Assembly: GCA_049521735.1 (NCBI GenBank)
Contig: JBEKON010000009.1
Location: 1-54,077, forward strand
DNA length: 54,077 bases
Source: Verrucomicrobiota bacterium
Lineage (GTDB): Bacteria > Verrucomicrobiota > Verrucomicrobiia > Limisphaerales > UBA11358
Direction: 5' to 3'
Of this stretch, positions 9,937 to 45,841 are shown piece after piece (position 1 is the stretch's first letter; every line of letters begins with the position of its first letter). The notes beneath the pieces were generated by a model that saw nothing but the letters and a program-made list of their open reading frames with translations, was not told the DNA's origin and did not search any database. The translations under genes and the position numbers were made by a program.

Positions 9937-12900
9937 ATGGAAACGAAGAAAATTTGTCCGAACTGCCGGAAGCCGTTGCCGCCGGACGTGCCGTTGGGAC
10001 TGTGTCCGGAGTGCCTCATCAAATCCGGCTTCCCCACCGGGACTGAACCGGGAACGGCGGGCGAGGCTGCCGGCACGCGGTTTGTGCCGCCGCCGGTCGC
10101 GGAAATCGCACAGCTTTTTCCACAACTCGAAATCCTTCGCCTCATTGGCCAGGGCGGCATGGGGGCGGTTTACAAGGCCCGGCAGCCGACGCTGGACCGC
10201 TTTGTCGCGTTGAAGGTATTGCCACCGGTGGTGGCCAGCGACCCAGGTTTCGCCGAACGGTTCAACCGCGAGGCGCGCGCCTTGGCGCGTTTGAATCACC
10301 CAAATATCGTGGCCGTGCATGACTTCGGCAAGGCGGGCGCATTGCCTTATCTGCTGATGGAATTTGTGGATGGAGCTAATCTGCGCGAGGTTGAACAGGC
10401 CGGAGAACTGACGCCGGAAAAAGCACTGGCCATTGTGCCGCAAATCTGCGAGGCGCTCCAGTTCGCCCACAACGAAGGCATCGTCCACCGCGACATCAAG
10501 CCGGAAAATCTGCTGCTGGATAAAAAGGGCCGGGTGAAAATCACGGACTTCGGCATCGCGAAAATTGTTGGGGCGCCTGCCGGCAAGGTTTCGCTGACGG
10601 GCGTCAAGGACGTGGTGGGCACGCCGCATTACATGGCGCCGGAACAGATCGAGAAGCCGCAGACGGTGGATCATCGCGCGGACATTTATTCGCTGGGGGT
10701 TGTGTTCTACGAAATGCTCACCGGCGAACTGCCATTGGGAAAATTTCAGCCGCCGTCGAAGAAGGTCCAGATCGATGTGCGGCTGGACGAAGTTGTTTTG
10801 CACACGCTGGAAAAGGAACCTTCGCGCCGTTACCAGCAGGTGAGCCAGGTGAAGACGGACGTGGAGACAATTGCGGGAACGGCGCCGGTGGATACCGAAA
10901 CATTGACTCGGGAAATTCTGTCTCGGGACTATGTTTTAGACATTGGCAGTTGCCTGAGCCGCGGTTGGGCGTTGCTGCAAAATAATTTTTGGCCGGTCGT
11001 GGGCATCACCGCGCTGATCGTGTTGCTGCGGCACGCAGCTGATTCCTCCTTGATAGGCATTGTGGTCGGTGGTCCGCTCATGGGCGGATTGTGGTTGTAT
11101 TACCTGAAGAAGATCCGCGGAGAGCAGGCAGGCTTGGAGACAGTCTTTTCCAGCTTTAGCATCGCCTTTCTGCATCTCTTCCTCGCCGGCCTGATCACCA
11201 TGGTGTTGACGGTGCTTGGAATTATCTGCCTGATATTGCCCGGCATTTATCTGGCGATTGCCTGGCTGTTCACCCTGCCCCTGGTCATTGACAAACGGCT
11301 CGATTTCTGGCCGGCAATGGGGTTAAGCCGCAAGACAATCTCCAAACATTGGTGGAAATTCCTCGGATTCATAATCATCCTGGGCTTGATTAATCTGGCG
11401 GGGCTCCTGGCCTGTTTTGTGGGGCTTCTCATCACCGTTCCCCTTTCCCTGGCCGCGATGATGTATGCCTACGAAGACATCTTCGGCCCGACCAGCCGTA
11501 CAGCCAGCCTGCTGGCATCTGACACCGTCCAAGCCAAGGCGACTGCGTTGGCGGGAACATCGGCAAAATCACCCCGTTCAAACGACGGAACTTGGAAGGT
11601 TGTCGTAATCGCCGCAGCGGCAGCAATGCTGATTCTGGCCATTTTGTTCGGCGCATTGTTCGTGCCCGCATTGAGCAAGGCCCGGCAGCGCGCTGCCATG
11701 CATCAAGCGACCGCCAACTTCATGGTTCGCGGGGTCGTCAGCGACGCCGCTACCGGCAAACCCATTGCCGGCGCACGGGTGGCGGACAACATCTACGGCG
11801 CGCGCACCAACCGAACCCCGCGGGAAGCTTGGACCGATGCAACCGGCCGCTACGAACTGAAGACGTGGTATGAGGAGCACTCCATTGCCGCTTCTGCGCC
11901 CGGTTACGAAACCAAACTGGCCACGCTCTTCACCAAACCTTTGGGCAAAAAGAAAGAAGCACAGATGGATTTCCAGTTGCAACCGGCCCGGGCGAACGCT
12001 CCGGCCACCAATGGGGATTCCAGCATGGCTTTGAACATTTCATCACCGGAACCAACCGCCATTCCCCCAGCGGCGCCAAGACCACCCACGACGCATCCGG
12101 GAAAAGTCATCGGCAATCTTTCGACATCGGACCCTTACCAGCAGGATTTCAACCAGACTCTGCTGCTTTCCGCCAATGGCCGATTGCGCCTCGATAATGT
12201 CAACGGCCGTATCGAAATCTTCGGCTGGGACCGTAATGAAGTCTCCATCAAAGCCCTCAAGCACGGCAAAACCCAGGAAAGCGTCGAAGACACCAAAATC
12301 GTTGTTGATTCGTCACCGGATGAAATTGCCATCCACACGGAACAGCCGTCCAGCCAGAACGGACCTTTCGGGACTTGGTCATGGCTCATGAACGGCGGTA
12401 TCAAAATGGCGACGGTGGATTACGTCATCCAGGTTCCACGAAGCACGCGCCTCAAGGAAATTACCAGTGTCAATGGGCGCATCGCGATTGAAGACGTCAA
12501 CGGCGATATCGAAGCGTCCACTGTCAATGGTGAAATGCAGGTCGCGGGAACAGCGGGCGATTTGGAACTTTCCACCGTCAACGGCCGGATTGCCGCGGAA
12601 CTGGTTTCCCTCGGACGCGGTCAATCGGTTTCGTTCGACAGCGTCAACGGCAAAATCGAGGTCACCTTGCCTGCCAACGCGAACGCCGAAGTTTCGGCCG
12701 ACGTAGTCAACGGCAGCATCACCAGCGAATTTCCCGCCTTGGCGGTTCAAAAGGAATTTCCGTTAGGTAAAAAACTGAAGGGAACACTCGGCAACGGCGG
12801 CGCCAGTGTCAAAGCCAACGCGGTCAATGGCCGCATCAGCTTCCGGATGGGCCAGGATGCGCAAAAATCCGGTGTTAAACAGTCCGAAACGGAAGACGCG

Positions 12901-13260: not shown

Positions 13261-13674
13261 ATGAAAACGAAAACATTGCTCGCAACCTTCATCGCTGGCG
13301 CCATTTGTCAGTTCGCACCGCAGCTTTGCCGCGCGCAGGACATTGATTCTATCGCGCCGGTGGTTGTGAAAACCGTGCCCGAGGCCGGCAGCAAAAATGT
13401 TTCGCCCGGTGAGGTCGAAATCAAGGTCACGTTCAGCAAGGAAATGACGGACCAATCCTGGAGCTGGTCGTCAGCCTGGAAAGATTCCACGCCGGAAGGT
13501 ACGGAAAAACCGCATTACGAAGCCGACCACAAAACTTGCGTGCTGAAGGTGAAACTGGAACCTAACAAGACATACGGTTACTGGATCAACAGCCAGAATT
13601 TTCACGGTTTCAAGGACCAGCAAGGTCATTCAGCAGTGCCTTACCTTCTCGTCTTTCAGACCAAAGGAAATTAA
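13261..13674 (+). CDS. Secreted single-domain (Ig-like) protein, paralogue of the kinase C-terminal domain
   Basis: 137 aa with signal peptide MKTKTLLATFIAGAICQFAPQLCRAQ. The rest aligns by eye with kinase residues ~990-1101 (PVVVKTVP..VEIKVTFSKEM.DQSWSWS..KVKLEPNKTY.YW.NS..F..F.D..G..AVPYLLVFQTK). Confidence 0.8.
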   Translation: MKTKTLLATFIAGAICQFAPQLCRAQDIDSIAPVVVKTVPEAGSKNVSPGEVEIKVTFSKEMTDQSWSWSSAWKDSTPEGTEKPHYEADHKTCVLKVKLEPNKTYGYWINSQNFHGFKDQQGHSAVPYLLVFQTKGN

Positions 13675-13747
13675 CCCCAGCCAAATAGGGACAGCCGTAG
13701 TCCGTTGTGCTTGATTTGCGGCAACAGCAGCACCATTCTTGGCGGCA

Positions 13748-14416
13748 ATGAAAATCACCTTTGCCCGAATGGTGCTGCTCTGCTTCGCGTTGGGCTCCGC
13801 TAATTCTGCCATCGCGCAGGATTCCAAGCCTGTCATCACGCCGACGAACCACATCGAGCTTTTCAACGGCAAGGATCTTTCGGGCTGGACGTCTTGCATG
13901 AGGACGAACGGCGATTCGTCGCAGACCTGGACCGTCACCAATGGCGTCATTCATTGTACCGGCAAACCCAGCGGCTACCTCCGCACGCTGCAAAATTATC
14001 GCGATTACCAGCTCACCGTCGAATGGCGCTTCGTCAAAATCGCGCCCAAGGCCGACAACACCGGCGTGCTCGTCCATATGCAATTACCCGACAAAGTCTG
14101 GCCGATGTGCATCCAAAACCAGGGAAAATACAACAACCAGGGTGACTTGATATTTATGGCCGGCGCGGAATCCAAGGAGCATCGCGGCATGGACGCCAAT
14201 ACGCCGGTCCCGAAGCAAGGACCCTCGAATGAAAAACCCGTTGGGGAGTGGGACACGATTCTGACGGTTTGCTCCGGCAACGACGTCAAGGCTTACGTCA
14301 ACGGCAAGTTCATGAATGAAGGAACCGAATGCACCCTCTCTTCGGGTTTCATCGGCTTCCAAAGCGAAGGCGGCGAATTCGAAATCCGCAAAGTGTTCTT
14401 GGACCCGCTGAAATAA
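13748..14416 (+). CDS. DUF1080 (3-keto-disaccharide hydrolase-like) secreted protein
   Basis: ORF 13739..14416. It has a signal peptide, then ELFNGKDLSGW..W.V.NGVI.C.GKPSGYL.T...Y.DYQL.VEWRF...GFIGFQSEGGEFEIRKV, the typical DUF1080 pattern. Confidence 0.85.
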   Translation: MKITFARMVLLCFALGSANSAIAQDSKPVITPTNHIELFNGKDLSGWTSCMRTNGDSSQTWTVTNGVIHCTGKPSGYLRTLQNYRDYQLTVEWRFVKIAPKADNTGVLVHMQLPDKVWPMCIQNQGKYNNQGDLIFMAGAESKEHRGMDANTPVPKQGPSNEKPVGEWDTILTVCSGNDVKAYVNGKFMNEGTECTLSSGFIGFQSEGGEFEIRKVFLDPLK

Positions 14417-14465
14417 ATCTCTGTTGCGGCGGTCTATGACCGTCGCCAACGTTCACAAAGCGCCG

Positions 14466-14783
14466 CTACGCCGGACGCAACTGCACGAGGGTCGCGCCCC
14501 AGCCGCCGAATTGCGGATGATCGAGCGTGAAGGACACCACGGCCGGATGTTTGGCCAGAATCGCGTGTACCGTGCGCCGCAGATTGCCGATGCCCTTGCC
14601 GTGAATGATCCGCACCTGGAGGATGCCGCGCGCCTGACACGCGGCCAAATAATCCGACACGAGGTCCTTCACCTCGCGCGGCTGGAACGTGTGCAAATCC
14701 AGCACTCCGTCAATCGGCAGTTGTACCGGTTCGTCAGCCATATGGATAATATTCCTTACTCGACCATCCGGTGAAAGTTCCAT
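14466..14783 (-). CDS. Smr domain protein
   Basis: [21 protein letters not shown]...G...[16 protein letters not shown] is the Smr pattern. The start may instead be the internal Met at 14741. Confidence 0.8.
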
Positions 14784-14805
14784 CCTGTTTTTGAAGAAAG
14801 ATCAG

Positions 14806-14872
14806 CCCCCTCACCCGGCCGGTGGCCACCCTCTCCCCGCCCGGCGGGGAGAGGGACGGGGCGAGGGGCACG
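14806..14872. repeat. REP-like palindromic element, family A (CTCTCCCC...GGGGAGAG hairpin)
   Basis: ccctcacccggcc..ctctccccgcccggcggggagagggacggggcgagggg. Related copies occur at 16868, 17391, 19390, 19442, 29605 and 33951. Confidence 0.85.
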
Positions 14873-29821: not shown

Positions 29822-31411
29822 TTATTTCGCGTTAATCCCGTCCAGCACCGGCGAGTTCCGAATCACCACATTTGTGACTGAATCGAGCGTGGCCGCCGGC
29901 ACGCCATCGGCAAGCTGCGCTTTGAAGTTGTCCACTTCGAGTCCGTCCACATCCGAACAAGCCATCGCAGGACGAAAGTCATTGGTTACAAAACTCAGGT
30001 TGATGTTTGCCAGTTCCAGGCCGCGAACGTGGCGGGCAAAAACGCCGTAAGCGGGCATTACCCCAATCCGGCTGGGTTCGGGATAACCGGTGCCGAGTTC
30101 CGGCGCGATGCGCGCGGCATTTTCCTTTGTCCCGCCGCCTTTGAAAATGAGCCGGATGTTGTCCAGACGCACCCCTTCCAGCGGCTGGCCGGGCGTGCCG
30201 GTGATTTGGATGCCGCTCATTGGATCAACACCGGTGGCCACCACATTGGAAATGAGAATGTTCCGGCCTTGGCTGTGAGTGGTGACATTCGGCCCGCGAT
30301 TGCGGTCGCCCAGCGTGATGTAAATGGGATACCCGGCGACATCCATCATGCTAATGTTGTTGATGGTGATGTTTTCCATGATGCCACCGTCCACTTCCTC
30401 CAATGCCAGCCCATGGCAACTGCGGAATGTGCAATTGGCCACGGTGATGTTGCGGAAACCGCCGCTGGCCTCGGTCCCGAACTTGATTCGACCCGTTCCG
30501 CGTCCCGGTTTCATCGTGCCGTCGAGCAGCGTGCCTTCCTTAAAACCGGAGACCTGGCAATTCACAATGGTCAGATTTTCCGTAATGACATTCCGGCCCA
30601 GCGCAAAACTGCTCTTGGGGCACAAGCCGTCGTCGCGCGGCGAATTGATTTTGCAATTGGAAACCGTCGTGTTGCGGCAGCAATCGATGTCAATGCCGTC
30701 GCGCTGGGTGTCAATCGTCACGTTGTCCACGTTCAGATTGTCGCAGCCGGTGGCCAGAATGGCGAAATGGCCGCCGTGAAAAATCGTGAAGTCGCGCAGC
30801 AGCACGTTGCGGCACAGCTTGAGCGCGATGGCCTTGTTGCCAATACGGACGGGCGGCAGATTTGTGGCTGAAGGCCCAGGTGTGCCGTCATGGTTGAAGC
30901 CGCACATCTGGTCGAGCACCTTGGGGTCGCGCACCAGCCCGCCGCCGTTGATCATGCCGGTGCCGGTGATGGAAACGTTCGTGAGATTTTCGCCCCAGAT
31001 GAGGCTGTTGTGGAAATACGTGTGCCCGCCGTCCTGATAGCCACCGCGCGTGTATGGCTCGGTCTCGTCATAGGCGTTCAAGTCCTGCGGCGCGCCGAGA
31101 ATCACCGCGCCGGCGTCCAGATACAAATGGATGTTATTGGTCAGGTGGATGCTGCCGCACAGATACGTGCCTGCCGGAACAAAAACTGTTCCCCCGCCCG
31201 CCGCCGACGCAGCCCGGATCGTCCTGTCAATGGCCGGATTGTCCAATGCCTTGCCGTCGCCAATCGCGCCAAAACTCCGCACGTTGAAAACTGTTTTGTG
31301 CGATGCGGGCGTTAATTCGCAGCCGGTTTGAAAAAATGCTCCCAGCGATACGATGCAAAGCACGGCGATTTTTGACGACAAGCGACAGCGGAAGATGCGT
31401 TGGAATTTCAT
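29822..31411 (-). CDS. Pectin-lyase-fold glycoside hydrolase (GH28-like)
   Basis: FNVRSFGAIGDGKALDNPAIDRTIRAASAAGGGTVFVPAGTYLCGSIHL plus parallel beta-helix repeats. I set the start at MKFQRIF (31411), which gives a lipoprotein-like signal (..FFQTGC). Confidence 0.8.
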   Translation of the reverse strand: MKFQRIFRCRLSSKIAVLCIVSLGAFFQTGCELTPASHKTVFNVRSFGAIGDGKALDNPAIDRTIRAASAAGGGTVFVPAGTYLCGSIHLTNNIHLYLDAGAVILGAPQDLNAYDETEPYTRGGYQDGGHTYFHNSLIWGENLTNVSITGTGMINGGGLVRDPKVLDQMCGFNHDGTPGPSATNLPPVRIGNKAIALKLCRNVLLRDFTIFHGGHFAILATGCDNLNVDNVTIDTQRDGIDIDCCRNTTVSNCKINSPRDDGLCPKSSFALGRNVITENLTIVNCQVSGFKEGTLLDGTMKPGRGTGRIKFGTEASGGFRNITVANCTFRSCHGLALEEVDGGIMENITINNISMMDVAGYPIYITLGDRNRGPNVTTHSQGRNILISNVVATGVDPMSGIQITGTPGQPLEGVRLDNIRLIFKGGGTKENAARIAPELGTGYPEPSRIGVMPAYGVFARHVRGLELANINLSFVTNDFRPAMACSDVDGLEVDNFKAQLADGVPAATLDSVTNVVIRNSPVLDGINAK

Positions 31412-31553
31412 ATTTGGGACGGGCAACTTATAAATTTCGGACTGAAGATGCAACCCCCGGACACGTGGGCCGCCAAAACATCACGTCAACCGGTGTCTGA
31501 ATTCCGCACAGGAATAGCCGCAAAAGGGCGCAAAAGACACAGAGATTTTTTTA

Positions 31554-36640: not shown

Positions 36641-38299
36641 ATGAGATTCGTCATGGAAATTGCGAAGTCCAGCGATTCACTTGAAGCACTCCGGCTCGAA
36701 GCCGAGCAAGGAGATTCCAAGGCGCAAAGTGATTTGGGATTACGCTATTACATGGGCGAGGGCGTAACTAAAGATTTCACGGAAGCTCTAAAATGGTATC
36801 GCAAGGCGGCTGAACAGAACGAAGCGTCAGCACAAAACAGCATAGGTCTCTGTTACGCCAGCGGCCAAGGTGTCAAACAAGACCTGACCCAAGCTGTTCA
36901 ATGGTATCGCTTGTCCGCAGAAAAAGGTAACCGCTGTGGCCAAAACAACCTTGGAACGTGCTATGACGAAGGGCAGGGTATTGCCCAAGATTCGGCTCAA
37001 GCAGTCGAATGGTATCGTCGCGCTGCCGAACAAGGGAACAGCGAAGCCCAAAACAATCTCGCAATTTGTTACGAACAGGGGCGTGGTGTGCAAAAAGATT
37101 TGTCCGAAGCAGCCAGGTATTACCGGCTTGCTGCGGAACAAGGCCACGAATACGCCCAGAGGAATCTCGGCTTGTGCTATCGGGACGGATTGGGTGTTTC
37201 TCGGGATGCAGTCGAGGCCATCAAATGGCTTCGGAAGGCAGCCGATAAAGAATTTGTTCCTGCACAGTTGTCGCTTGTCTTGACTTATAGAAATGGCCGC
37301 GGTGTTCCCAAAGACCAACAAGAAGCACTCAAATGGCTGCGTAAAGCAGCCGAAAATGGAGATGCAAACGCCCAGACTTGGCTGGGGCTCGTGCACTACT
37401 TAGGCCGCGACCTGCCACGCGACTTGGCAGAATCAGCCAAATGGTTTCGGCGGGCGGCTGAAGCCGGAGAGGCTGCTGGCCAATCGAGCTATGGTCGTCT
37501 TTTGTTGACTGGTCAGGGTATCGGCAAAAATCCGATCGAAGCCGTTCAGTGGTTTCGGAAAGCGGCGACTCAAGGAGATGCACACGGAGAATACTGTCTC
37601 GGTGTATGCTACGCTAGCGGACTCGGAACGGACAAAGACTTTGACGAGGCTCGTAGGTGGTTTCAGTTGGCTGCCCGGAAGAATTATTTAGATGCCAAAT
37701 ATCGTCTTCGACTGCTTTTTTTCCAAAAGCATTCGATTTTGAAATGGCGTAACATCGTCATTTCAACTCTTGGTTGCGCACTGCTGATTTTGCATGGAGT
37801 CCGTTTTCCCATTTCAGTCAATGGTTTTGCCATAGCAGCTTTCCTCGGAATTCTTGCCACCAGTGGCGTGGTCTTCATTGCAGCCATGGCATTGATGGAA
37901 AAGTTAGGTGTGAAAGTATTGGATGAAAAGGAGGCAGACGCGATCAATGAGCGGCTTTTTTCTATGTTGAGAAAAGAACCTTGGAGACTTCTGCTCATTC
38001 CAGCAGAGGATGGCGTCTTTCTTTTGCCTCTGCTCTATGTTGGAATTAGCCCCGTCTCGGCTGCCGTGGCAGCTTTCCTTTTTGCGGTGGCTCACTACCC
38101 CGGCTTTCCATGGCGATATTGCATACCCAAGGGCATAGCCTATTTCTTCGTGGCGCTGTTTATTCTTCCCTATGGCATCTGGTCTGTCGTCGTAGCTCAC
38201 CTGATTGTTGATGTCGGCCTATGGGTGGTCATGTTGGTGGTGAAGGTGGAAGGGAAACCGACTTGGCGCCGGCTTCTCCGAGTATTACGAACTGAATGA
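36641..38299 (+). CDS. Sel1-repeat protein fused to a polytopic CPBP-like (CAAX-protease-like) membrane domain
   Basis: About 9 Sel1/SLR repeats (A..WYRKAAEQG...AQ..LG.CY..G.GV..D). These are followed by 5-6 TM helices containing FAVAHY and VVAHLIVD, which resemble CPBP motifs 2 and 3. Confidence 0.75.
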   Translation: MRFVMEIAKSSDSLEALRLEAEQGDSKAQSDLGLRYYMGEGVTKDFTEALKWYRKAAEQNEASAQNSIGLCYASGQGVKQDLTQAVQWYRLSAEKGNRCGQNNLGTCYDEGQGIAQDSAQAVEWYRRAAEQGNSEAQNNLAICYEQGRGVQKDLSEAARYYRLAAEQGHEYAQRNLGLCYRDGLGVSRDAVEAIKWLRKAADKEFVPAQLSLVLTYRNGRGVPKDQQEALKWLRKAAENGDANAQTWLGLVHYLGRDLPRDLAESAKWFRRAAEAGEAAGQSSYGRLLLTGQGIGKNPIEAVQWFRKAATQGDAHGEYCLGVCYASGLGTDKDFDEARRWFQLAARKNYLDAKYRLRLLFFQKHSILKWRNIVISTLGCALLILHGVRFPISVNGFAIAAFLGILATSGVVFIAAMALMEKLGVKVLDEKEADAINERLFSMLRKEPWRLLLIPAEDGVFLLPLLYVGISPVSAAVAAFLFAVAHYPGFPWRYCIPKGIAYFFVALFILPYGIWSVVVAHLIVDVGLWVVMLVVKVEGKPTWRRLLRVLRTE

Positions 38300-38420: not shown

Positions 38421-39821
38421 ATGAAAACATTTCATGTCCCCGGTAAATTTATGGTTCTGTCTTTCCTGCTGCTTTCAGCCTTCGCCATCGAAGCGGCCAC
38501 CTCCACCGCGTTGTTCAACGTGCGCAACTACGGGGCCTTCGGTGACGGCAAGCATCTGGAAAACTTCGCCATCAACAGGGCCATCGCGGCCTGCGCCAAT
38601 GCCGGGGGCGGCACGGTCTATCTGCCGCCGGGGAAATATCTGTCCGGCACCATCGTGCTGAAGAGCCATGTCACTCTGGATTTGGACGCGGGCGCGACGA
38701 TTCTCGGCAGCGAGAACCCGGAAGATTACCCGACGCTCAAGGATCCCTGGGGCGGCGACCGGGCGGAAATATCCCCGTTGATTTACGCGGAAGATGCAGA
38801 AAACATCACTATTACTGGCCGTGGCACCATCAACGGCCAGGGACAGATTTGGTGGAAACGGCAATGGCTGGCGTTTCCCAAAAAAGGAATGCCCGAGGCG
38901 AAAACTCCCGAGGATTTTGACGAGGTGAAAAAGATTTCCCGCGGCCGGCCCCAGTTGATCCGGCTGGTGCGCTGCAACGACGTGGTGATCGAGCATTTGA
39001 ATTTGACGAATTCGCCGAGCTGGAACGTGCATCCGCTCTTTTGCGAATTCGTGCGCGTGGATGGCCTGACCATTTCCACGCCGGTGCCGTCGCCGAACAC
39101 GGACGGCATCAACCCGGAGAGCTGCCGGAACGTGCAAATCATCAACTGCCGCATTGATACCGGCGACGATTGCGTGACCTTGAAATCGGGCATCAATGAA
39201 ACGGGCCGACGCATGGGCCGGCCGGACGAGAACATCACAATCGCCAACTGCGTGATGAAGAAAGGCCACGGCGGCGTGACCATCGGCAGCGAGATGTCCG
39301 GCGGGGTGCACAATGTCACGGTGGCGAACTGCGTGTTTCAGGGCACGGACATCGGGATTCGCGTCAAGGCGCAGCGCGGTCGCGGCAACGTGGTGGAAGG
39401 CCTGACGGTGGCCAATGTCGTGATGCAGGACGTGCCGCATCCGTTCACCATCACGACGTTTTACCATGGCAGCGACCAGCCGGGTGATGTTTATCCCGTG
39501 GACGAGGGGACGCCGCGTTTCCGCGATTTTCTTTTCAGCAACATCACGGCCCGGGGCGCCAAGGACGCCGGCAGCATCACCGGCCTGCGCGAATTGCCCA
39601 TCGAGAACATCTCGTTCAGCAACGTTCACATCCAGGCCGCCAAAGGGTTCACCTGCACCAATGCCCGGGAAATCTCCTTCCTGGATGTGGTCATCAACAC
39701 CGACGAAGGCCCGGCCCTGATTCTGCGCAATGCCACGGGCATAGATTCCTCGCGCTTGCGGACCCAGACCCCGCACCAGGACGTTCCCTTGGTGGATTCC
39801 GACGCGTCGGCGAGCCAGTAG
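38421..39821 (+). CDS. Glycoside hydrolase family 28 (polygalacturonase-like)
   Basis: Signal peptide, FNVRNYGAFGDGK, then the GH28 catalytic motifs SPNTDGINP, TGDDCVTLKSG, KGHGGVTIGSE and GIRVKA. Confidence 0.85.
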   Translation: MKTFHVPGKFMVLSFLLLSAFAIEAATSTALFNVRNYGAFGDGKHLENFAINRAIAACANAGGGTVYLPPGKYLSGTIVLKSHVTLDLDAGATILGSENPEDYPTLKDPWGGDRAEISPLIYAEDAENITITGRGTINGQGQIWWKRQWLAFPKKGMPEAKTPEDFDEVKKISRGRPQLIRLVRCNDVVIEHLNLTNSPSWNVHPLFCEFVRVDGLTISTPVPSPNTDGINPESCRNVQIINCRIDTGDDCVTLKSGINETGRRMGRPDENITIANCVMKKGHGGVTIGSEMSGGVHNVTVANCVFQGTDIGIRVKAQRGRGNVVEGLTVANVVMQDVPHPFTITTFYHGSDQPGDVYPVDEGTPRFRDFLFSNITARGAKDAGSITGLRELPIENISFSNVHIQAAKGFTCTNAREISFLDVVINTDEGPALILRNATGIDSSRLRTQTPHQDVPLVDSDASASQ

Positions 39822-39927
39822 TTGTCCACGCCGCTTTGTCCGGGTGGAATCCCGCCTTCGCGGCTTGCTTCCGCCTTCATTGCATTTCGGCGTGACGAGT
39901 CGGCGTGGGCTGTGGCTAACTACCCGT

Positions 39928-40230
39928 ATGAACAAGTCCATGCCTTCGCTATTCCAGAGCGTGTGCCTGCGATTGGCGGATGATGTGACCTTTCAATCGC
40001 TGGGACCCGGTGAGGAAACGGTCGTGCTCTCGCTCAACTCCGGCTATCTATATACCTGCAATGAAACTACTGCCGCCTTTTTGCGGGGACTGGACGGCAA
40101 ACAATCACTGGCCGCGGTGATTGACTCGCTCTTTAACGAGTTTCAGGTTTCCCGGGCAACGTTGAGCAAGGACATGACGGCATTAGCAGCAAAGCTGCTG
40201 GAGGAGAAACTCCTCGTTGAAGAACCCTGA
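39928..40230 (+). CDS. PqqD-family RiPP recognition element (lasso B1-like)
   Basis: Internal Met of ORF 39844..40230. ..LADDVTFQSLGPGEETVVLSLNSGYLYTCNETTAAFLRGLDGKQSLAAVIDSLFNEFQVSRATLSKDMTALAAKLLEEKLL is the PqqD pattern. Confidence 0.8.
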   Translation: MNKSMPSLFQSVCLRLADDVTFQSLGPGEETVVLSLNSGYLYTCNETTAAFLRGLDGKQSLAAVIDSLFNEFQVSRATLSKDMTALAAKLLEEKLLVEEP

Positions 40231-40648
40231 ACATACATTTTACGCAGGCCGGCTGCTGTTGCGCGGGCATATCTGGCTGCTGGCAACGCTGATTCCGTTG
40301 CTGGAAAAAATCCTCCCCTTAAAATACTTATTGCGTCTGTTGACACCGCCGCCACGTTTCAAACCCTATGGCGGCATGCTCCCGGAAGAAATCTCCCGGT
40401 GGGTTGCCCACCGATTGCGTCAGCCGCGAAATATGCGCCGGCGCGCCTGCCTGCGGCATGGGCTGACTTTGTTCCACTTCCTAAGGCTGGCGGGCTGCCC
40501 GGCGGTTCTGCACATTGGAGTTTTCCCGCCGCAGTTTGACAGTCGGCGGATGCACGCGCATTGCTGGGTGACCCTCAACGGCGTCTGTTTGATCCCGCCG
40601 CCCGAACAGCCGGCAGCAACTCTCCTGACTTACTGCCCGGCGGAATAA
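40217..40648 (+). CDS. Lasso-peptide B2-type leader protease (transglutaminase-core cysteine protease)
   Basis: 143 aa with a TTG start overlapping the PqqD gene by 14 nt. RRACLRHGLTLFHFLRLAGCPAVLHIGV.......MHAHCWV fits the B2 Cys...His pattern. Confidence 0.8.
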   Translation: MKNPEHTFYAGRLLLRGHIWLLATLIPLLEKILPLKYLLRLLTPPPRFKPYGGMLPEEISRWVAHRLRQPRNMRRRACLRHGLTLFHFLRLAGCPAVLHIGVFPPQFDSRRMHAHCWVTLNGVCLIPPPEQPAATLLTYCPAE

Positions 40649-40766
40649 CATGCGGCAAGAATTGGTACTATGAGCAAATGGTTTGACAGATGCCTGTCAA
40701 ATTGGGACAACACGCACAATTGGATTGGGATTCGAAATTGGCCATCTAAGAACAAGTTTTAATCGT

Positions 40767-40904
40767 GTGAAAACATCAAAAAAACAAACCTTGCCGGAAA
40801 ACAAGAAACAGAAACGCGATTACGTCAAACCGGAGATCAAAAAGCGCGAACAGATCAAGGAAGTCACAGAACAACAAGGCCCCGGGCCCGTCACTGTGGA
40901 GTAG
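40767..40904 (+). CDS. RiPP precursor 1 (leader + core QQGPGPVTVE)
   Basis: GTG start. (M)KTSKKQTLPENKKQKRDYVKPEIKKREQIKEVTE|QQGPGPVTVE. It is the 3' part of track ORF 40683..40904. Confidence 0.7.
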   Translation: MKTSKKQTLPENKKQKRDYVKPEIKKREQIKEVTEQQGPGPVTVE

Positions 40905-40913
40905 AAATGTCAT

Positions 40914-41045
40914 ATGAAAACATCAAAAAAACAAACCCCGCCGGAAAACAAGAAACAGAAACGCGACTACGTTAAACCGGAGATCAAAAAGCGCGAACAA
41001 ATCAAGGAAATCACAGAACAACCAACCCCCGGAACCGTCTTTTGA
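40914..41045 (+). CDS. RiPP precursor 2 (core QPTPGTVF)
   Basis: Own translation: MKTSKKQTPPENKKQKRDYVKPEIKKREQIKEITE|QPTPGTVF*. 43 aa, below the track cutoff. Confidence 0.7.
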   Translation: MKTSKKQTPPENKKQKRDYVKPEIKKREQIKEITEQPTPGTVF

Positions 41046-41059
41046 CATCGAAATACCAT

Positions 41060-41527
41060 ATGAAAACATCAAAAAAACAAACCCCGCCGGAAAACAAGAA
41101 ACAGAAACGCGACTACGCCCCGCCGGAGATCAAAAAGCGCGAACAAATCAAGGAAACCACGGAAGGCACGCCTCCGGTCATCACGCCAGTACTCATATCG
41201 GATCGCAACGCCAAGAAAAACTTCCAATCAGTGGATACCGTGGCCGTGCTGGAAAAGCTGGCTGCCATTCCCGTTGAACGGTGGAATTACAAATGGGAGA
41301 AGGACGGCGATGTGCCGCATCTTGGCCCGATGGCGCAGGATTTCAAAGGCGCGTTTTATCCCGGTCGCGATGACAAGAGCATCAGCACCTTGGAATTCCA
41401 TGGCGTGGAACTGGCGGCGATCCAGGGGTTGAATCAGAAACTGGAAGAAAAGGATGCGGAAATTCAGGCGCTCAAGCAGAGTGTTGCCGAACTCAAACAA
41501 CTGGTTTCGCAGTTGACCCAAAATTAA
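41060..41527 (+). CDS. RiPP precursor 3 fused to a peptidase-S74 intramolecular-chaperone (self-cleaving) domain
   Basis: MKTSKKQTPPENKKQKRDYAPPEIKKREQIKETTE|GTPPVITPVLI|SDRNAKKNFQSVDTVAVLEKLAAIPVERWNYKW....HLGPMAQDFKGAF...LAAIQGLNQKLEEKDAEIQALK. The tail matches the SDxxxK..I...W.YK..GxIAQ.. coiled-coil S74 pattern. Confidence 0.75.
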   Translation: MKTSKKQTPPENKKQKRDYAPPEIKKREQIKETTEGTPPVITPVLISDRNAKKNFQSVDTVAVLEKLAAIPVERWNYKWEKDGDVPHLGPMAQDFKGAFYPGRDDKSISTLEFHGVELAAIQGLNQKLEEKDAEIQALKQSVAELKQLVSQLTQN

Positions 41528-41532
41528 ATTGT

Positions 41533-41670
41533 ATGAAAACATCAAAAAAAGAAACCCTGCCAGAGAATAAAAGGCGGAAGCGGGACTACGCCCAGCCGGA
41601 GATTAAAAAGCGCGAACAGATCAAGGAAGTGACGGAAGGCGGTGGCCCGGTTGTCACAACAAAGGACTGA
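41533..41670 (+). CDS. RiPP precursor 4 (core GGGPVVTTKD)
   Basis: Own translation: MKTSKKETLPENKRRKRDYAQPEIKKREQIKEVTE|GGGPVVTTKD*. Confidence 0.7.
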   Translation: MKTSKKETLPENKRRKRDYAQPEIKKREQIKEVTEGGGPVVTTKD

Positions 41671-41675
41671 ATATA

Positions 41676-41819
41676 ATGAAAACGCCGAAAGAACAAACCC
41701 AGCCGGAGACCGAGAAACAGAAGCGCGACTACGTCAAACCGGACATCAAAAAACGCGAACAAATCAGGGAAGTCACGGAAGGCGACGAAGTGTTTGTCAC
41801 AACAGAGACCAAAAGATAA
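41676..41819 (+). CDS. RiPP precursor 5 (core GDEVFVTTETKR)
   Basis: Own translation: MKTPKEQTQPETEKQKRDYVKPDIKKREQIREVTE|GDEVFVTTETKR*. Confidence 0.7.
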   Translation: MKTPKEQTQPETEKQKRDYVKPDIKKREQIREVTEGDEVFVTTETKR

Positions 41820-41956
41820 TGAAAACATCGGAAAATCAAACCCCGACGGAAAACAAGGAACAGAAGCGCAACTACGTCCAGCCGGAGATCAAAAAGCGCG
41901 AACAGATCAAGGAAATCACGGAAGGCCCGGGCCCAGTCGTCACTGCTACAGGGTAG
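41819..41956 (+). CDS. RiPP precursor 6 (core GPGPVVTATG)
   Basis: The ATG overlaps the stop of precursor 5 (TAATG). MKTSENQTPTENKEQKRNYVQPEIKKREQIKEITE|GPGPVVTATG*. It is the 3' part of track ORF 41642..41956. Confidence 0.7.
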   Translation: MKTSENQTPTENKEQKRNYVQPEIKKREQIKEITEGPGPVVTATG

Positions 41957-41965
41957 AAATATCAT

Positions 41966-42103
41966 ATGAAAACATCCAAAGAACAAACCCAGCCGGAAAT
42001 CAAGAAACAGAAACGCGACTACGCCCCGCCGGAGATCAAAAAGCGCGAACAGATCAAGGAAGTCACAGAATTCCCCTTATTGATCGTTACTCCCGAGAAG
42101 TAA
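41966..42103 (+). CDS. RiPP precursor 7 (core FPLLIVTPEK)
   Basis: Own translation: MKTSKEQTQPEIKKQKRDYAPPEIKKREQIKEVTE|FPLLIVTPEK*. Confidence 0.7.
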   Translation: MKTSKEQTQPEIKKQKRDYAPPEIKKREQIKEVTEFPLLIVTPEK

Positions 42104-42112
42104 AAATACTTC

Positions 42113-42256
42113 ATGAAAACATCCAAAAAACAAACCCAGCCGGAAAACAAGGAACAGAAACGCGACTACGCCCCGCCGGAGATCAAAAAGCGCGAACAAA
42201 TCCGGGAAGTGACGGAAGGCAGTGGCCCAAGCGTCACAACCAAACCGCCGCCGTAA
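42113..42256 (+). CDS. RiPP precursor 8 (core GSGPSVTTKPPP)
   Basis: Own translation: MKTSKKQTQPENKEQKRDYAPPEIKKREQIREVTE|GSGPSVTTKPPP*. Confidence 0.7.
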   Translation: MKTSKKQTQPENKEQKRDYAPPEIKKREQIREVTEGSGPSVTTKPPP

Positions 42257-42381
42257 AGACTTGCAAGCGGTCAACAAAAGACGCTTGTCAGAGCCGTTAG
42301 ATTTCCATCCTTGAGTAGCCGGCTGGTTGCAGCCGGCAAAAACGTTGTTTTCTCGTTCTTGTTTATCCCCTCGAATCAACC

Positions 42382-43371
42382 ATGAGTCCGGCGAAAACAC
42401 ATTACGACTTGCACGGCATGCGAATGACGGTGGAAGCGCCGAGTCAATCGCTGCTGGATGTGATTCATGTGCTTCTGGGCGCTTACGCAGATTCCGGCAA
42501 CGGTGCGGACGGATTCCATGTGAGTCTGGATTACGGGCAGCCACGGCAAAAAGCCGACCCGGGTTTGCATAAATTTTGGACGGGCACACTGCCCAGTGGC
42601 ACCCGGATGATTTGCCGCAGTGGTCCGAACCGGCGGCAGATTGAGATACCGGACCATGTCTGCGCTGACATTGATCTGGCCAAACGCATTGCCAGGATCG
42701 TTGTGAGTCCAGACAACAAAGCCGGCCTGCTGGAAACCTGTTTCCTGCCGTTGCTATGCGATTGTCTCGGGTTGAACGGCCATCATGTGATCCATGCCGC
42801 CAGTCTGTTCGTTCAGGCCGGTGGCCAGCGACGTGCGCTCATCTTCTCGGGCATGAGCGGTCGCGGAAAAACCACACTGGCGCTGGCACTGGCCGGGGCG
42901 GGTCTGGGCATGCTGGCTGACGACATGACTTTTTACCAGGCCGCGACCGCGAACCGGCCGGGACAAATCTGGGGAATCCGAATCCGCTGCAAGGTGCATT
43001 CACGAACGCTTGAGTTGCTCCCCTGGCTGCAAGATTTTCCCATGGGCAGCGTCAGTTCGAATGGCGAGCGGCTTCTGGATATACGGTCATTGAAACCACA
43101 GACAGCCGGTCTGATGGCATCACCGGGATTGATCCTTTTTCTGAATCCGCGAAATGCGGAGTCCCACCAGATTGAGCCGGTGGACAAGGTCACGGCGCTG
43201 ACACGATTGACTCGGGAAAACGTCCGGGCGCTCGATCAGCGCCGCGAGGCCGTGGCAGGCCGGGCCTTTGGAGCGCTGGCGGAGTTGGTGCGTTCCAGCC
43301 GGACTTTCCAAGTCAGCCTCTGCCCGCGTCTGGAAGAATTGCCAGAGCAACTCGCTTCCCTGTGGTCATGA
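42382..43371 (+). CDS. HPr-kinase-like P-loop protein (lasso-cluster-type peptide kinase homologue)
   Basis: HVIHAASLFVQAGGQRRALIFSGMSGRGKTTLALALAGAGLGMLADDMTF matches the HAsav..G.a.lf.G.SG.GKSTLA....G...L.DD pattern of HPrK-related kinases. Confidence 0.7.
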   Translation: MSPAKTHYDLHGMRMTVEAPSQSLLDVIHVLLGAYADSGNGADGFHVSLDYGQPRQKADPGLHKFWTGTLPSGTRMICRSGPNRRQIEIPDHVCADIDLAKRIARIVVSPDNKAGLLETCFLPLLCDCLGLNGHHVIHAASLFVQAGGQRRALIFSGMSGRGKTTLALALAGAGLGMLADDMTFYQAATANRPGQIWGIRIRCKVHSRTLELLPWLQDFPMGSVSSNGERLLDIRSLKPQTAGLMASPGLILFLNPRNAESHQIEPVDKVTALTRLTRENVRALDQRREAVAGRAFGALAELVRSSRTFQVSLCPRLEELPEQLASLWS

Positions 43372-44381
43372 TGTTCCTGAACCAAACCCATTCCCTGCTC
43401 CTGGCGCTGGCGGATCCCCGCGGCCCGGCTGACGCCATTGATTTTGCTCCACCGGCGCCGGTGAAGCTGCGGCGGCTGCTGGAATTGGCGGATCAGCATG
43501 GCGTGCTGGCCATCGTCATGGAAAATCTCAAACAGTTGATAAGCCGGGAAAACGGACAATGGCATTCCTTTCAGCCGGACCCGGCCGTGTGGGAGTGGAC
43601 ACGGCAACGAATGCGGCAGCGGACAGGAATGTCACTCGTGCTGCGCGGGCAGGTCATGGAAATCATCACTCGCATGCAAAAAGCGGGATTGCCGGCAGTC
43701 ATCCTGAAGGGTTGCGATTTTGCCGATCGGCTTTATCCGCATCCGTCGTTGCGCCCGTTCACCGATGTGGACCTGCTGATTCCACAACGGATTCTCCCCG
43801 AAACCCGGCAGGTGTTCAAAGAATTGGGTTATAAGCCGGTCGAGGTGCAAATGAAGCATCAAACCGGTTACGGCGAGGAAAGCTGGCGTCATCCCAATCG
43901 CTCCGGCGGCACGGTGGAGATTCATTGGAACCTGGTGAATTCGCCGTCGCTGCGGCGCGCATTGTCCGTAACGTATGATGACCTGCAACTTGAGACGCAT
44001 CAGAACCAGCCACGCCCCAGCGCTACGGCCACGTTGTTGATCGCGGCGGTGCATGGTGTGGCCAGTCACGGCGTTGACCGGTTGCAAGTGCTTGGCGATG
44101 TGGTCCAGGCTGTTCGCGGGACAGCTGGAACGCTGGACGAAGCCTGGCTTGCTCAAGCCGTTCCCCAAACCGGGACAGACCGTGCACTGGCAACGGCGCT
44201 GGCATTGGCCTATAAAGTGTATGGGGAACCAAACTGTGTGAACCTGATGAAACGCTTGGGGATTGAGCGCCGGGCCTGGCCGGGCAATCTGTTGCTGACC
44301 CGCGGTGTCGTGCTGCGCGCCCACGCTTCGCGCGATTCGTTCCGCCGACAGTTGTTGCGGGAATTGTTAAAACACAAATGA
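43368..44381 (+). CDS. Uncharacterised nucleotidyltransferase family protein (PF14907-like)
   Basis: ..LLELADQHGVLAIV...L.., AGLPAVILKGCDFADRLYPHPSLRPFTDVDLLIPQ. The ATG at 43368 overlaps the kinase stop (ATGA). Confidence 0.7.
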   Translation: MMFLNQTHSLLLALADPRGPADAIDFAPPAPVKLRRLLELADQHGVLAIVMENLKQLISRENGQWHSFQPDPAVWEWTRQRMRQRTGMSLVLRGQVMEIITRMQKAGLPAVILKGCDFADRLYPHPSLRPFTDVDLLIPQRILPETRQVFKELGYKPVEVQMKHQTGYGEESWRHPNRSGGTVEIHWNLVNSPSLRRALSVTYDDLQLETHQNQPRPSATATLLIAAVHGVASHGVDRLQVLGDVVQAVRGTAGTLDEAWLAQAVPQTGTDRALATALALAYKVYGEPNCVNLMKRLGIERRAWPGNLLLTRGVVLRAHASRDSFRRQLLRELLKHK

Positions 44382-45841
44382 ACGTCCTGCTCGTTTATCC
44401 CGCGCCACCGCCTTCGGCCTGGCCCAAGGGCGCTTTTCGTTCCCGCTGGATTCCGTCCGGGCTGGCCTGCATTGCCACCGTGCTGCGCCGGGGCGGGCAT
44501 CGGGTTAAAATCCATCTCTGCGAAGAAACACTGGAACTGAATCATTATGCCCGGGCTGCAGCCCGGGCATCGCTCCAGGCGCAGATGCGGGATTTTCGGC
44601 CCGAGATTGTGGGCTTGTCACTCGTCACCTCCGGTGTGCCCGAGGGTGCAATCGTGGCGGAAGATGCCAAGACATTGCTGGGTCCGCAGACACTGGTGGT
44701 GGCCGGCGGACCGCATCCGACCGTCCTTTCCGAAGAACTGCTGGCTGGTTGCCCGGCCATTGACGCAGCCGTCATCGGCGAAGGCGAACTGACCATGCTG
44801 GAGCTGGCCGATCATGGCCTCTCGCCATCCGTCAGCGGAATCGTGTTGCGCCGCAACGGGACGCTGATGCGCACGCCTCCACGCGCGGCGGTGAAAGACC
44901 TCGACAGCTTGGGGCCTCCCGCCTACGACCTGTTCAACGTGAAACATTTCACGGCGCCAAGCCGGTGGTTGATTCGGTTTCTGAAACTCCCGGCCACCAA
45001 TCTCCGCACGAGCCGCGGCTGTTCTCATCGCTGCAGCTTCTGCGCCGGCCACCTCGTCGCCGGACTGGGCGTGCGCTATCATTCCATCGAATACGTCCTT
45101 GACCAGATGCGCCACGCCGCGACACGCCTCGGCGCAACAGCCATTCGTTTTGAGGACGACACTGTCGGGGCGGATCGTGGAAGATTGTTGGAATTATGCG
45201 CGGCCATCCGCCGGGCCGGTTTGCACAAGCAGCTGAAATGGGAGGCGTGCCTCCGGGTCAATCAGGCCGACGCCGAAATACTAGCCGAGATGAAGGCCGC
45301 CGGCTGCATCCAGGTTGAATACGGTTTTGAAAGCGGCTCGACGGAGTCGCTGCGGCGGCTTGGCAAACAGACGGACATCGAGTTGAACCGGCGCGCCGTT
45401 GAACTGACACGGCGGGCGGGCTTGCGCATTTTCGCGGACATCATGGTGGGTTTGCCAGGCGAGACTCCCGAAGATTTGAAAGCCACAGTGCGGTTCCTGC
45501 GCTGGGCCCGGCCTGAAATTATTTCCGCAGCACGGCTTTGTCCGTTGCCGGGAACACCCATTTACAACAACCTTGATCCCGCCGTGCGGTCAAAGATCGG
45601 TTGGGAAGATTTCAGTTATCCGGACAGCCAGGTGAATCCGGTAAATTTGACAGCCATGCCCGACCGGCAAATCAATGAATTATACCGGAAGTTCATGAAA
45701 TATTCCATTCGTCCGCAAATGACATGGGCATTGCTCCGGGACACACCCGCCGCCGAGCGCCGAAAGCAGTGGCCAATGTGCAAAAACCTGGCCCGATTCG
45801 TCCTGCGCCATCCGCTTAAAGCCATGCGGGTGCCGTGGTAG
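44378..45841 (+). CDS. B12-binding-domain radical SAM enzyme (class B rSAM)
   Basis: N-terminal cobalamin-binding Rossmann region (VLLVYP...GLACIATVLRRGGHRVKI..IVGLSL..VVAGGPHPT) and a CxxxCxxC cluster (SRGCSHRCSFCAG). The ATG overlaps the previous stop (ATGA). Confidence 0.85.
   Translation: MNVLLVYPAPPPSAWPKGAFRSRWIPSGLACIATVLRRGGHRVKIHLCEETLELNHYARAAARASLQAQMRDFRPEIVGLSLVTSGVPEGAIVAEDAKTLLGPQTLVVAGGPHPTVLSEELLAGCPAIDAAVIGEGELTMLELADHGLSPSVSGIVLRRNGTLMRTPPRAAVKDLDSLGPPAYDLFNVKHFTAPSRWLIRFLKLPATNLRTSRGCSHRCSFCAGHLVAGLGVRYHSIEYVLDQMRHAATRLGATAIRFEDDTVGADRGRLLELCAAIRRAGLHKQLKWEACLRVNQADAEILAEMKAAGCIQVEYGFESGSTESLRRLGKQTDIELNRRAVELTRRAGLRIFADIMVGLPGETPEDLKATVRFLRWARPEIISAARLCPLPGTPIYNNLDPAVRSKIGWEDFSYPDSQVNPVNLTAMPDRQINELYRKFMKYSIRPQMTWALLRDTPAAERRKQWPMCKNLARFVLRHPLKAMRVPW

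Follow-up and report, generated by a model that had tools for sequence, protein, structure and literature searches.

We have examined a 54,077-nucleotide (nt) stretch of DNA from a Verrucomicrobiota bacterium (Limisphaerales; GenBank assembly GCA_049521735.1, contig JBEKON010000009.1, positions 1 to 54,077 of the forward strand), hereafter called the window, and describe in it a gene in which a short peptide precursor continues in frame into a peptidase-S74 domain, the intramolecular chaperone of phage tail fibers. This gene is the third of eight in an array of precursor genes, within a cluster that appears to specify a ribosomally synthesized, post-translationally modified peptide (RiPP). Taken on sequence criteria, it belongs genuinely to the precursor-peptide family of the cluster and is kept by selection. 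Our analysis leads us to favor, with moderate confidence, a reading in which the S74 portion would be a self-removing follower. Once trimerized, it would release leader plus core, such that a built-in autoprotease would make the C-terminus of the core.

The fused precursor and its S74 domain

The genes of the array encode a nearly invariant leader of 35 amino acids (aa), MKTSKKQT..(D/N)Y..P(E/D)IKKREQI(K/R)E.TE, with a short tail of variable sequence after it. With a profile of this leader we recovered 133 unfused family members of 38–82 aa, and no fusion of any other kind was present among the 120 matches listed. An earlier examination of the letters alone (the sequence-only reading) had proposed that the third gene has the normal leader and a core, GTPPVITPVLI, with no stop after it. 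Its translation of the open reading frame (ORF) at 41060–41527 was reproduced exactly, and both the leader-core layout and the missing stop are seen in the ORF and in our alignment. The frame runs 109 residues past the core, where the family siblings stop, and Ser47 of the fused protein stands at the position of the siblings' stop codon, at the end of the core. The fused leader retains 17/17 of the positions that are invariant in unfused precursors (alignment of 15), and it carries the YxxP motif, the sequence KKREQIKE, Thr at position -2 and Glu at position -1. Residues 1–41 are predicted to be disordered, with values of the predicted local distance difference test (pLDDT) below 50 in an AlphaFold2 (AF2) monomer model.

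Unfused cores are 8–14 aa long with a mode of 11 (42/99), and fused cores are 11 aa long in 15 of 20 unique cases. The pattern G-x-x-P-x-V-T, with V or I at position 6, is common to fused and unfused cores. Thr or Ser occupies core position 7 in 19/20 fused and 75/99 unfused cores (Thr in the fused core of the window), and all 99 unfused cores have Ser or Thr within positions 6–8. Near-identical cores were observed in both forms: fused SPAPITTTVPTP may be compared with unfused SPAPITTTVTG and TPAPITTTVPG, and fused GGAPIVTHVVV with unfused GNAPIVTHTPV. It had been proposed that a cut directly before the Ser would give leader plus an 11-aa core, and the boundary agrees with this proposal, fitting both the modal length of unfused cores and the G-x-x-P-x-V-T pattern. 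The last three residues of fused cores are unusually hydrophobic and beta-branched (for example VVV, VLI and VVI), which could reflect a constraint at the cleavage site or a product that needs a solubilizing or gating partner. Farther along the array, at 41817–41821, the stop codon of precursor 5 overlaps the start codon of precursor 6 in the sequence TAATG, an arrangement that suggests translational coupling within the array.

The assignment of the C-terminal part to the S74, or tail-fiber intramolecular chaperone, family was borne out by a search with hidden Markov models. The fused protein matched the Pfam profile PF13884 (Peptidase_S74) with E 8.2e-12 and 45.7 bits, far over the gathering cut-off of 22; residues 47–98 correspond to profile positions 1–52 of 58, and position 1 of the profile falls on Ser47. 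Among the PHROGs, residues 45–154 matched the extreme C-termini of several phage tail-fiber families, phrog_8003 being aligned at positions 287–382 of 389 (E 4e-9) and phrog_5481 at 914–1039 of 1043. The SDxxxK, W.YK and G.IAQ-type motifs that the sequence-only reading had named are present as SDRNAK, WNYKW and GPMAQDF, respectively. All 44 fused proteins collected here (see below) carry SD[RK]N[AV]KK, and one alignment (A2) shows no variation at S47, D48, K52 and K53 among its 17 fused sequences.

When an S74-only profile was compared with the PDB, S47-D-R-N-A-K52 paired in register with A(S587A)-D-L-R-A-K592 of crystal chain 7dc3_A, MyRF's intramolecular chaperone autocleavage (ICA) domain, at an E value (0.18) that is not significant alone. 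A wider profile of 88 homologues returned mostly coiled-coil noise from the PDB, with MyRF at E 0.52. A sequence search of the PDB with the whole fused protein gave one spurious match only, and an NCBIfam search with the same protein gave no relevant match. The long helix predicted near the C-terminus has block-mean pLDDT values of 83–93 over residues 121–155 of the AF2 monomer, and its hydrophobic positions, readable from the sequence, are spaced 3–4 residues apart.

Conservation of the fusion and probable source of the module

A search with the fused protein, followed by clustering at 90%, yielded 44 distinct fused relatives of 153–177 aa, drawn from JGI, ENA, NCBI and Logan data and including many metagenomes. 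Those examined are 72–90% identical to the window protein over their full length, with the leader and S74 portions conserved and the core variable. We have rejected an assembly artefact as the source of the fusion, because the identical fused protein is present on 9 contigs and its 44 distinct relatives come from several data sources.

Six distinct clusters have one fused gene each: that of the window, L001 (GCA_049510395.1), L004/L006, L005, L010 and L011. These clusters have the same five enzymes and different genomic neighbors. In L001, L004, L005, L006, L010 and L011 the fused gene lies, as it does in the window, in an array that has the B2 protease gene on one side and the kinase gene on the other, and its place in the array over the six clusters is 3rd of 8, 1st of 2, 3rd of 6, 2nd of 3, 1st of 9 and 1st of ~5. 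We also observed that in L011 the genes for the kinase (11373–12364) and the B12-binding radical SAM enzyme (13370–14835) each appear split into two ORFs, and that in L004/L006 a radical SAM gene of 430 aa is followed by a 48-aa ORF (13081–14544 in L004). Such split ORFs could be assembly errors or could mark decaying clusters.

Ratios of nonsynonymous to synonymous substitution (dN/dS), calculated by the Nei-Gojobori method over seven fused genes, were 0.07–0.19 for the S74/coiled-coil portion (aa 47–155; dS 0.26–0.85), 0.04–0.46 for the leader and 0.18–2.0 for the core, which is hypervariable between orthologues. This profile is classic for a RiPP, apart from the additional, strongly constrained follower.

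Among orthologous clusters, the fusion is conserved in the six listed above and is absent from two other sets. L007, L008 and L009, with kinases 76–85% identical to that of the window, have unfused precursors only. In the distant L012–L014 (kinase 42–51% identical) the enzyme order is kept, as far as the L012 contig extends before it ends inside the fifth gene, the precursors number one to three, all unfused, and an S74 domain is absent. Since the fusion is missing from both sets, it is an accessory innovation of one subclade. A single-sequence kinase search of genome contigs, which reaches close relatives only, returned four close loci.

The S74/coiled-coil portion is 65–83% identical to the C-termini of many Verrucomicrobial proteins annotated as "tail fiber domain-containing", which have YadA-head-like repeats; its closest S74 relatives are cellular Verrucomicrobial proteins and not phage proteins. 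Only G97 and A117 separate the fused S74 domains from the native ones. Judging from these likenesses, the module was probably recruited from the S74-terminated proteins that are abundant in the same Verrucomicrobial lineage. In ~6–8 of ~70 native Verrucomicrobial S74 homologues the nucleophile Ser is replaced by Cys. The idea that fusion of a peptide to S74 is a general RiPP device was dropped after two S74 proteins with short passengers, P0115 and P0104, were checked, as neither is in a RiPP cluster. P0104 stands alone in a non-RiPP neighborhood. P0115, a 128-aa S74/coiled-coil ORF, shares 4 nt with the end of the ORF for a GH2/Laminin_G_3 protein of 1718 aa (L015, 848–6387); the two are probably one frameshift-split gene, in which case a large glycoside hydrolase would carry an S74 module.

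Proposed self-removal and its alternatives

The scheme that we propose begins with the S74 domain and coiled coil joined in frame where the core normally ends. The C-terminal helix would drive trimerization, and in the trimer a Ser47/Lys52 dyad would cut the bond between Ile46 and Ser47. The 46-aa leader-core peptide freed in this way would match the seven unfused precursors in layout, and the shared machinery would then act upon it, namely the PqqD element, the B2 protease, whose cut would fall after Thr-Glu, and the kinase (HprK-like), NTP transferase and B12-radical SAM enzyme. The S74 trimer would be a self-removing follower, and would remain outside the product. Such an arrangement might bring gated release, shield a C-terminus that is very hydrophobic and beta-branched, or present the precursor to the enzymes as a trimer. 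The ICA domain of MyRF cleaves via a Ser-Lys dyad only as a trimer, its C-terminal coiled coil drives the trimerization, and the upstream fold is not required (PMC8326128). Since MyRF cleavage is independent of the upstream fold, a short unstructured passenger is plausible. For the fused precursors, we infer that the retained dyad, the exact boundary, the purifying selection and the residue at P1 (Val or Ile in 14/20 fused cores; Ile, Leu or Val in 67/69 native homologues) would all count in favor of self-cleavage.

Several observations weigh against self-removal. Cleavage of phage endosialidases needs a folded upstream triple beta-helix (PMC8326128), and such a helix is absent from the fused protein, whose passenger is the 46-aa peptide. 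Native homologues have T-[SA]-W-x-x-[ILV] directly before the cleavage Ser, with Trp at P4 in 65/69; this motif is absent from the fused proteins, and in 5/20 fused cores P1 is Pro. Overall, the AF2 monomer model scores poorly (pLDDT 61.8), and Foldseek comparisons of it with the PDB and BFVD gave nothing at E <=0.001; S74/endosialidase-chaperone entries appeared only at E 3.6–3.8, and we have not counted them as evidence. In neighbor-joining trees of the kinase, NTP transferase and radical SAM enzyme, L007–L009 nest inside fusion-bearing clades, a placement that implies at least two losses of the fused gene or its relocation. Because these sister clusters have no fused gene, the pathway does not need the fusion. 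The assignment of the cluster to the RiPPs is, for its part, deduced from homology.

The missing T-[SA]-W motif and the occurrence of Pro at P1 would also suit a protein that is left uncut, or is cut inefficiently, and in which the S74/coiled-coil portion is a trimerization handle. Such a protein might be a trimeric scaffold, decoy or regulator that shows three leader-core tails to the recognition element and the enzymes, or else the product, once B2 has cut away the leader, might be a small protein trimer bearing modified N-terminal tails. The presence of one fused copy per cluster hints at a special role and not at just another substrate, and precursors of up to 200 aa are reported, in PMC13381572, for lasso-related linear polyphosphorylated peptide (LPP) clusters that have no cyclase. 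We regard an uncut handle as doubtful, though deserving of real weight. Every fused sequence retains the catalytic Ser and Lys, which would be needless for pure oligomerization; the core evolves as does one that encodes a product, being hypervariable with the family pattern kept; and the domain boundary lies exactly at the normal end of the core.

It is very improbable, in our estimation, that the S74 chemistry is used to join or derivatize the ends of the core, Ser47 attacking the Ile46 carbonyl after trimerization to give an activated acyl intermediate, which the core N-terminal amine (freed by B2) or another nucleophile would resolve into a head-to-tail cyclic or C-terminally derivatized peptide. 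The idea draws on Ser-type cis-autoproteolysis by way of an ester. In its favor are the lack of a cyclase, both in the cluster and in the rest of the window, and the presence of an S74 module on this precursor only. Against it, the seven unfused precursors and the fusion-less clusters must mature without S74, and the chemical mechanism is not described in PMC8326128. Least credible of all is an accidental, inactivating fusion or a functionless remnant of a prophage tail fiber, even though some sister clusters are without the fusion and S74 domains are typical of phage tail fibers. The sequence-only reading had allowed for an inactivating accident. That view is contradicted by 44 distinct fused sequences and six clusters with intact frames, a dN/dS of about 0.1 in the S74/coiled-coil portion (range 0.07–0.19) and the invariance of S47, D48, K52 and K53. 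A prophage or tail-fiber remnant was rejected, because the window is housekeeping chromosome. The cluster is flanked by kdsB, pyrG, folC, glmS, pfk and ligA, with no phage genes nearby, and, as noted above, the closest S74 relatives are cellular.

The surrounding cluster and comparison with known systems

The features discussed here are located in Table 1. The precursor array sits between the B2 peptidase gene, upstream, and the kinase gene, downstream.

Table 1. Positions in the window of the fused precursor gene, its parts, the precursor array and the enzyme genes of the cluster
Feature	Positions	Strand	Basis or remarks
Fused precursor gene, 155 aa	41060..41527	+	ORF from ATG to TAA, translation, Pfam, 44 homologues
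Leader peptide, aa 1-35, MKTSKKQTPPENKKQKRDYAPPEIKKREQIKETTE	41060..41164	+	YxxP motif, Thr at -2
Core peptide GTPPVITPVLI, aa 36-46	41165..41197	+	Length and pattern as in unfused cores
Predicted cleavage/catalytic motif S47-D-R-N-A-K52	41198..41215	+	Predicted scissile bond between Ile46 and Ser47
Peptidase_S74 (intramolecular chaperone autocleavage) domain, aa 47-98	41198..41353	+	PF13884
C-terminal long helix, aa 111-154, presumed trimeric coiled coil	41390..41521	+	AF2
Precursor array, eight tandem genes	40767..42256	+	Regular-expression search, six-frame scan, alignment
Array members, in order	40767-40904, 40914-41045, 41060-41527 (fused), 41533-41670, 41676-41819, 41819-41956, 41966-42103, 42113-42256	+	
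PqqD-family RiPP recognition element, lasso B1-like	39844..40230	+	PF05402, E 3e-11; weak lasso PqqD NCBIfam matches
Lasso B2-type transglutaminase-like leader peptidase	40217..40648	+	PF13471; NF033537 lasso_biosyn_B2, 49.2 bits, cut-off 33
HprK-related kinase	42382..43371	+	TIGR04352 HprK_rel_A, E 2e-8, under curated cut-off
NTP_transf_5 nucleotidyltransferase	43362..44381	+	PF14907, E 4e-35
B12-binding radical SAM enzyme	44378..45841	+	PF02310, PF04055

The HprK-related kinase is kept in all related clusters. The best NCBIfam matches of the radical SAM enzyme are to B12-radical SAM families of the methyltransferase type, all under their cut-offs. We found no asparagine-synthetase-like macrolactam synthase in the cluster, among the large ORFs of the window or in the gene tables of the related loci, and no transporter gene in the cluster. 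Asp or Glu occurs at core position 7–9 in 12/99 unfused cores, and at none of these positions in the fused core of the window. A canonical lasso peptide cluster was rejected, there being neither a cyclase nor an acidic ring-closing residue. The region from 39844 to 45841 appears to encode an undescribed RiPP pathway that derives from lasso systems and lacks a cyclase; a literature search for Verrucomicrobial RiPPs with B12-radical SAM enzymes returned no paper on clusters of this type.

At 36641–38299, two genes upstream of the cluster, the window encodes a protein that has nine Sel1 repeats and, at its C-terminus, a weak match to Rce1/CPBP-like intramembrane proteases. CPBP proteases are sometimes tied to bacteriocin immunity; this gene is not kept beside the cluster in the other loci. 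The window also encodes two GH28 polygalacturonase-like beta-helix proteins (38421–39821 and 29822–31453), and other loci are flanked by genes for fucosidase, rhamnosidase, GH2 and sugar transporters, surroundings that fit a plant-polysaccharide-degrading lifestyle. The related loci come from bog and peat, in Verrucomicrobiota/Limisphaerales metagenome-assembled genomes, of which two are named SPRUCE and one is from a bog.

The sequence-only reading knew of no described RiPP precursor with a self-removing C-terminal trimerization module. In keeping with this, our full-text literature searches, which paired the S74 domain (PF13884) or the intramolecular chaperone with RiPPs or precursor peptides and also covered self-cleaving followers, returned no relevant paper. 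Both components were already known; it is their combination that is undescribed in the literature searched. RiPP precursors are normally trimmed by separate proteases. If the S74 portion is indeed a self-removing follower, a conserved precursor with its own C-terminal autoprotease would represent a new maturation logic, in which the follower leaves only after oligomerizing, and also a second cellular exaptation of the phage tail-fiber ICA domain, after that of eukaryotic MYRF. The passenger of the fused precursor is, to our knowledge, the smallest and least structured for an ICA domain, and its release would help to tell whether a folded trimer must lie upstream for ICA cleavage to occur. In addition, a module of 109 aa able to detach itself without trace from the end of a short peptide might serve in the expression of hydrophobic peptides, as a tag that removes itself.

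The closest described relatives of the cluster, going by PMC13381572, are the LPP clusters of Bacillota, whose precursors are 35–200 aa long with variable C-termini, and the paeninodin-type phosphorylated lasso clusters. With these, as they are presented there, the window cluster shares a discrete RiPP recognition element, an HprK-like kinase, an NTP transferase and a YxxP-type leader motif (PMC13381572). It resembles the LPP clusters in having no macrolactam synthase, and the lasso clusters in having a B2 cysteine leader peptidase and Thr at -2. In contrast to the LPP clusters so described, it belongs to a different phylum, has a B2 peptidase in place of their SpI-like (SipW-type) enzyme, and has no counterpart of their MsbA-like exporter (PMC13381572). 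Unlike both the LPP and the paeninodin clusters of that account, it adds a B12-radical SAM enzyme and multi-copy arrays of 8–14 aa cores. No S74 fusion is mentioned in the passages of the same source that were consulted (PMC13381572).

As for the S74 portion, the fused precursor shares with the corresponding domains of phage endosialidases, tail fibers and MYRF (ICA, CIMCD) the PF13884 match, an S-x4-K sequence at the start of the domain, WxYK, GxxAQ, a predicted C-terminal helix presumed to form a coiled coil, and the C-terminal placement. As in MYRF, the use of the module is cellular, and what it would release is an N-terminal cargo other than a fiber. The fused precursor differs from the phage and MYRF proteins in its passenger, which is a 46-aa leader and core predicted to be disordered, whereas theirs is a trimeric beta-helix, fiber or DNA-binding domain, and in the location of its gene, which lies in a peptide-precursor array inside a biosynthetic cluster. 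The Limisphaerales "tail fiber domain-containing" proteins, the likely donors of the module, have an S74 domain and coiled coil 65–83% identical to those of the fused precursors, with the same invariant residues. Unlike the fused precursors, they have repeat-rich N-termini that end in T-[SA]-W-x-x-[ILV] before the Ser, and some have a Cys nucleophile; the two contexts that were checked for such S74 proteins are not RiPP clusters.

RiPP precursors with protein-sized appendages are known from the borosin enzyme-core fusions, the Nif11/NHLP leaders and the bottromycin follower, and in these, too, a short core is trimmed from a larger protein. The appendage in these systems is removed by a separate protease, or else the fused part is a modifying enzyme. 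In the precursors described here, by contrast, the predicted autoprotease, which would make the C-terminus of the core, is the S74 appendage itself.

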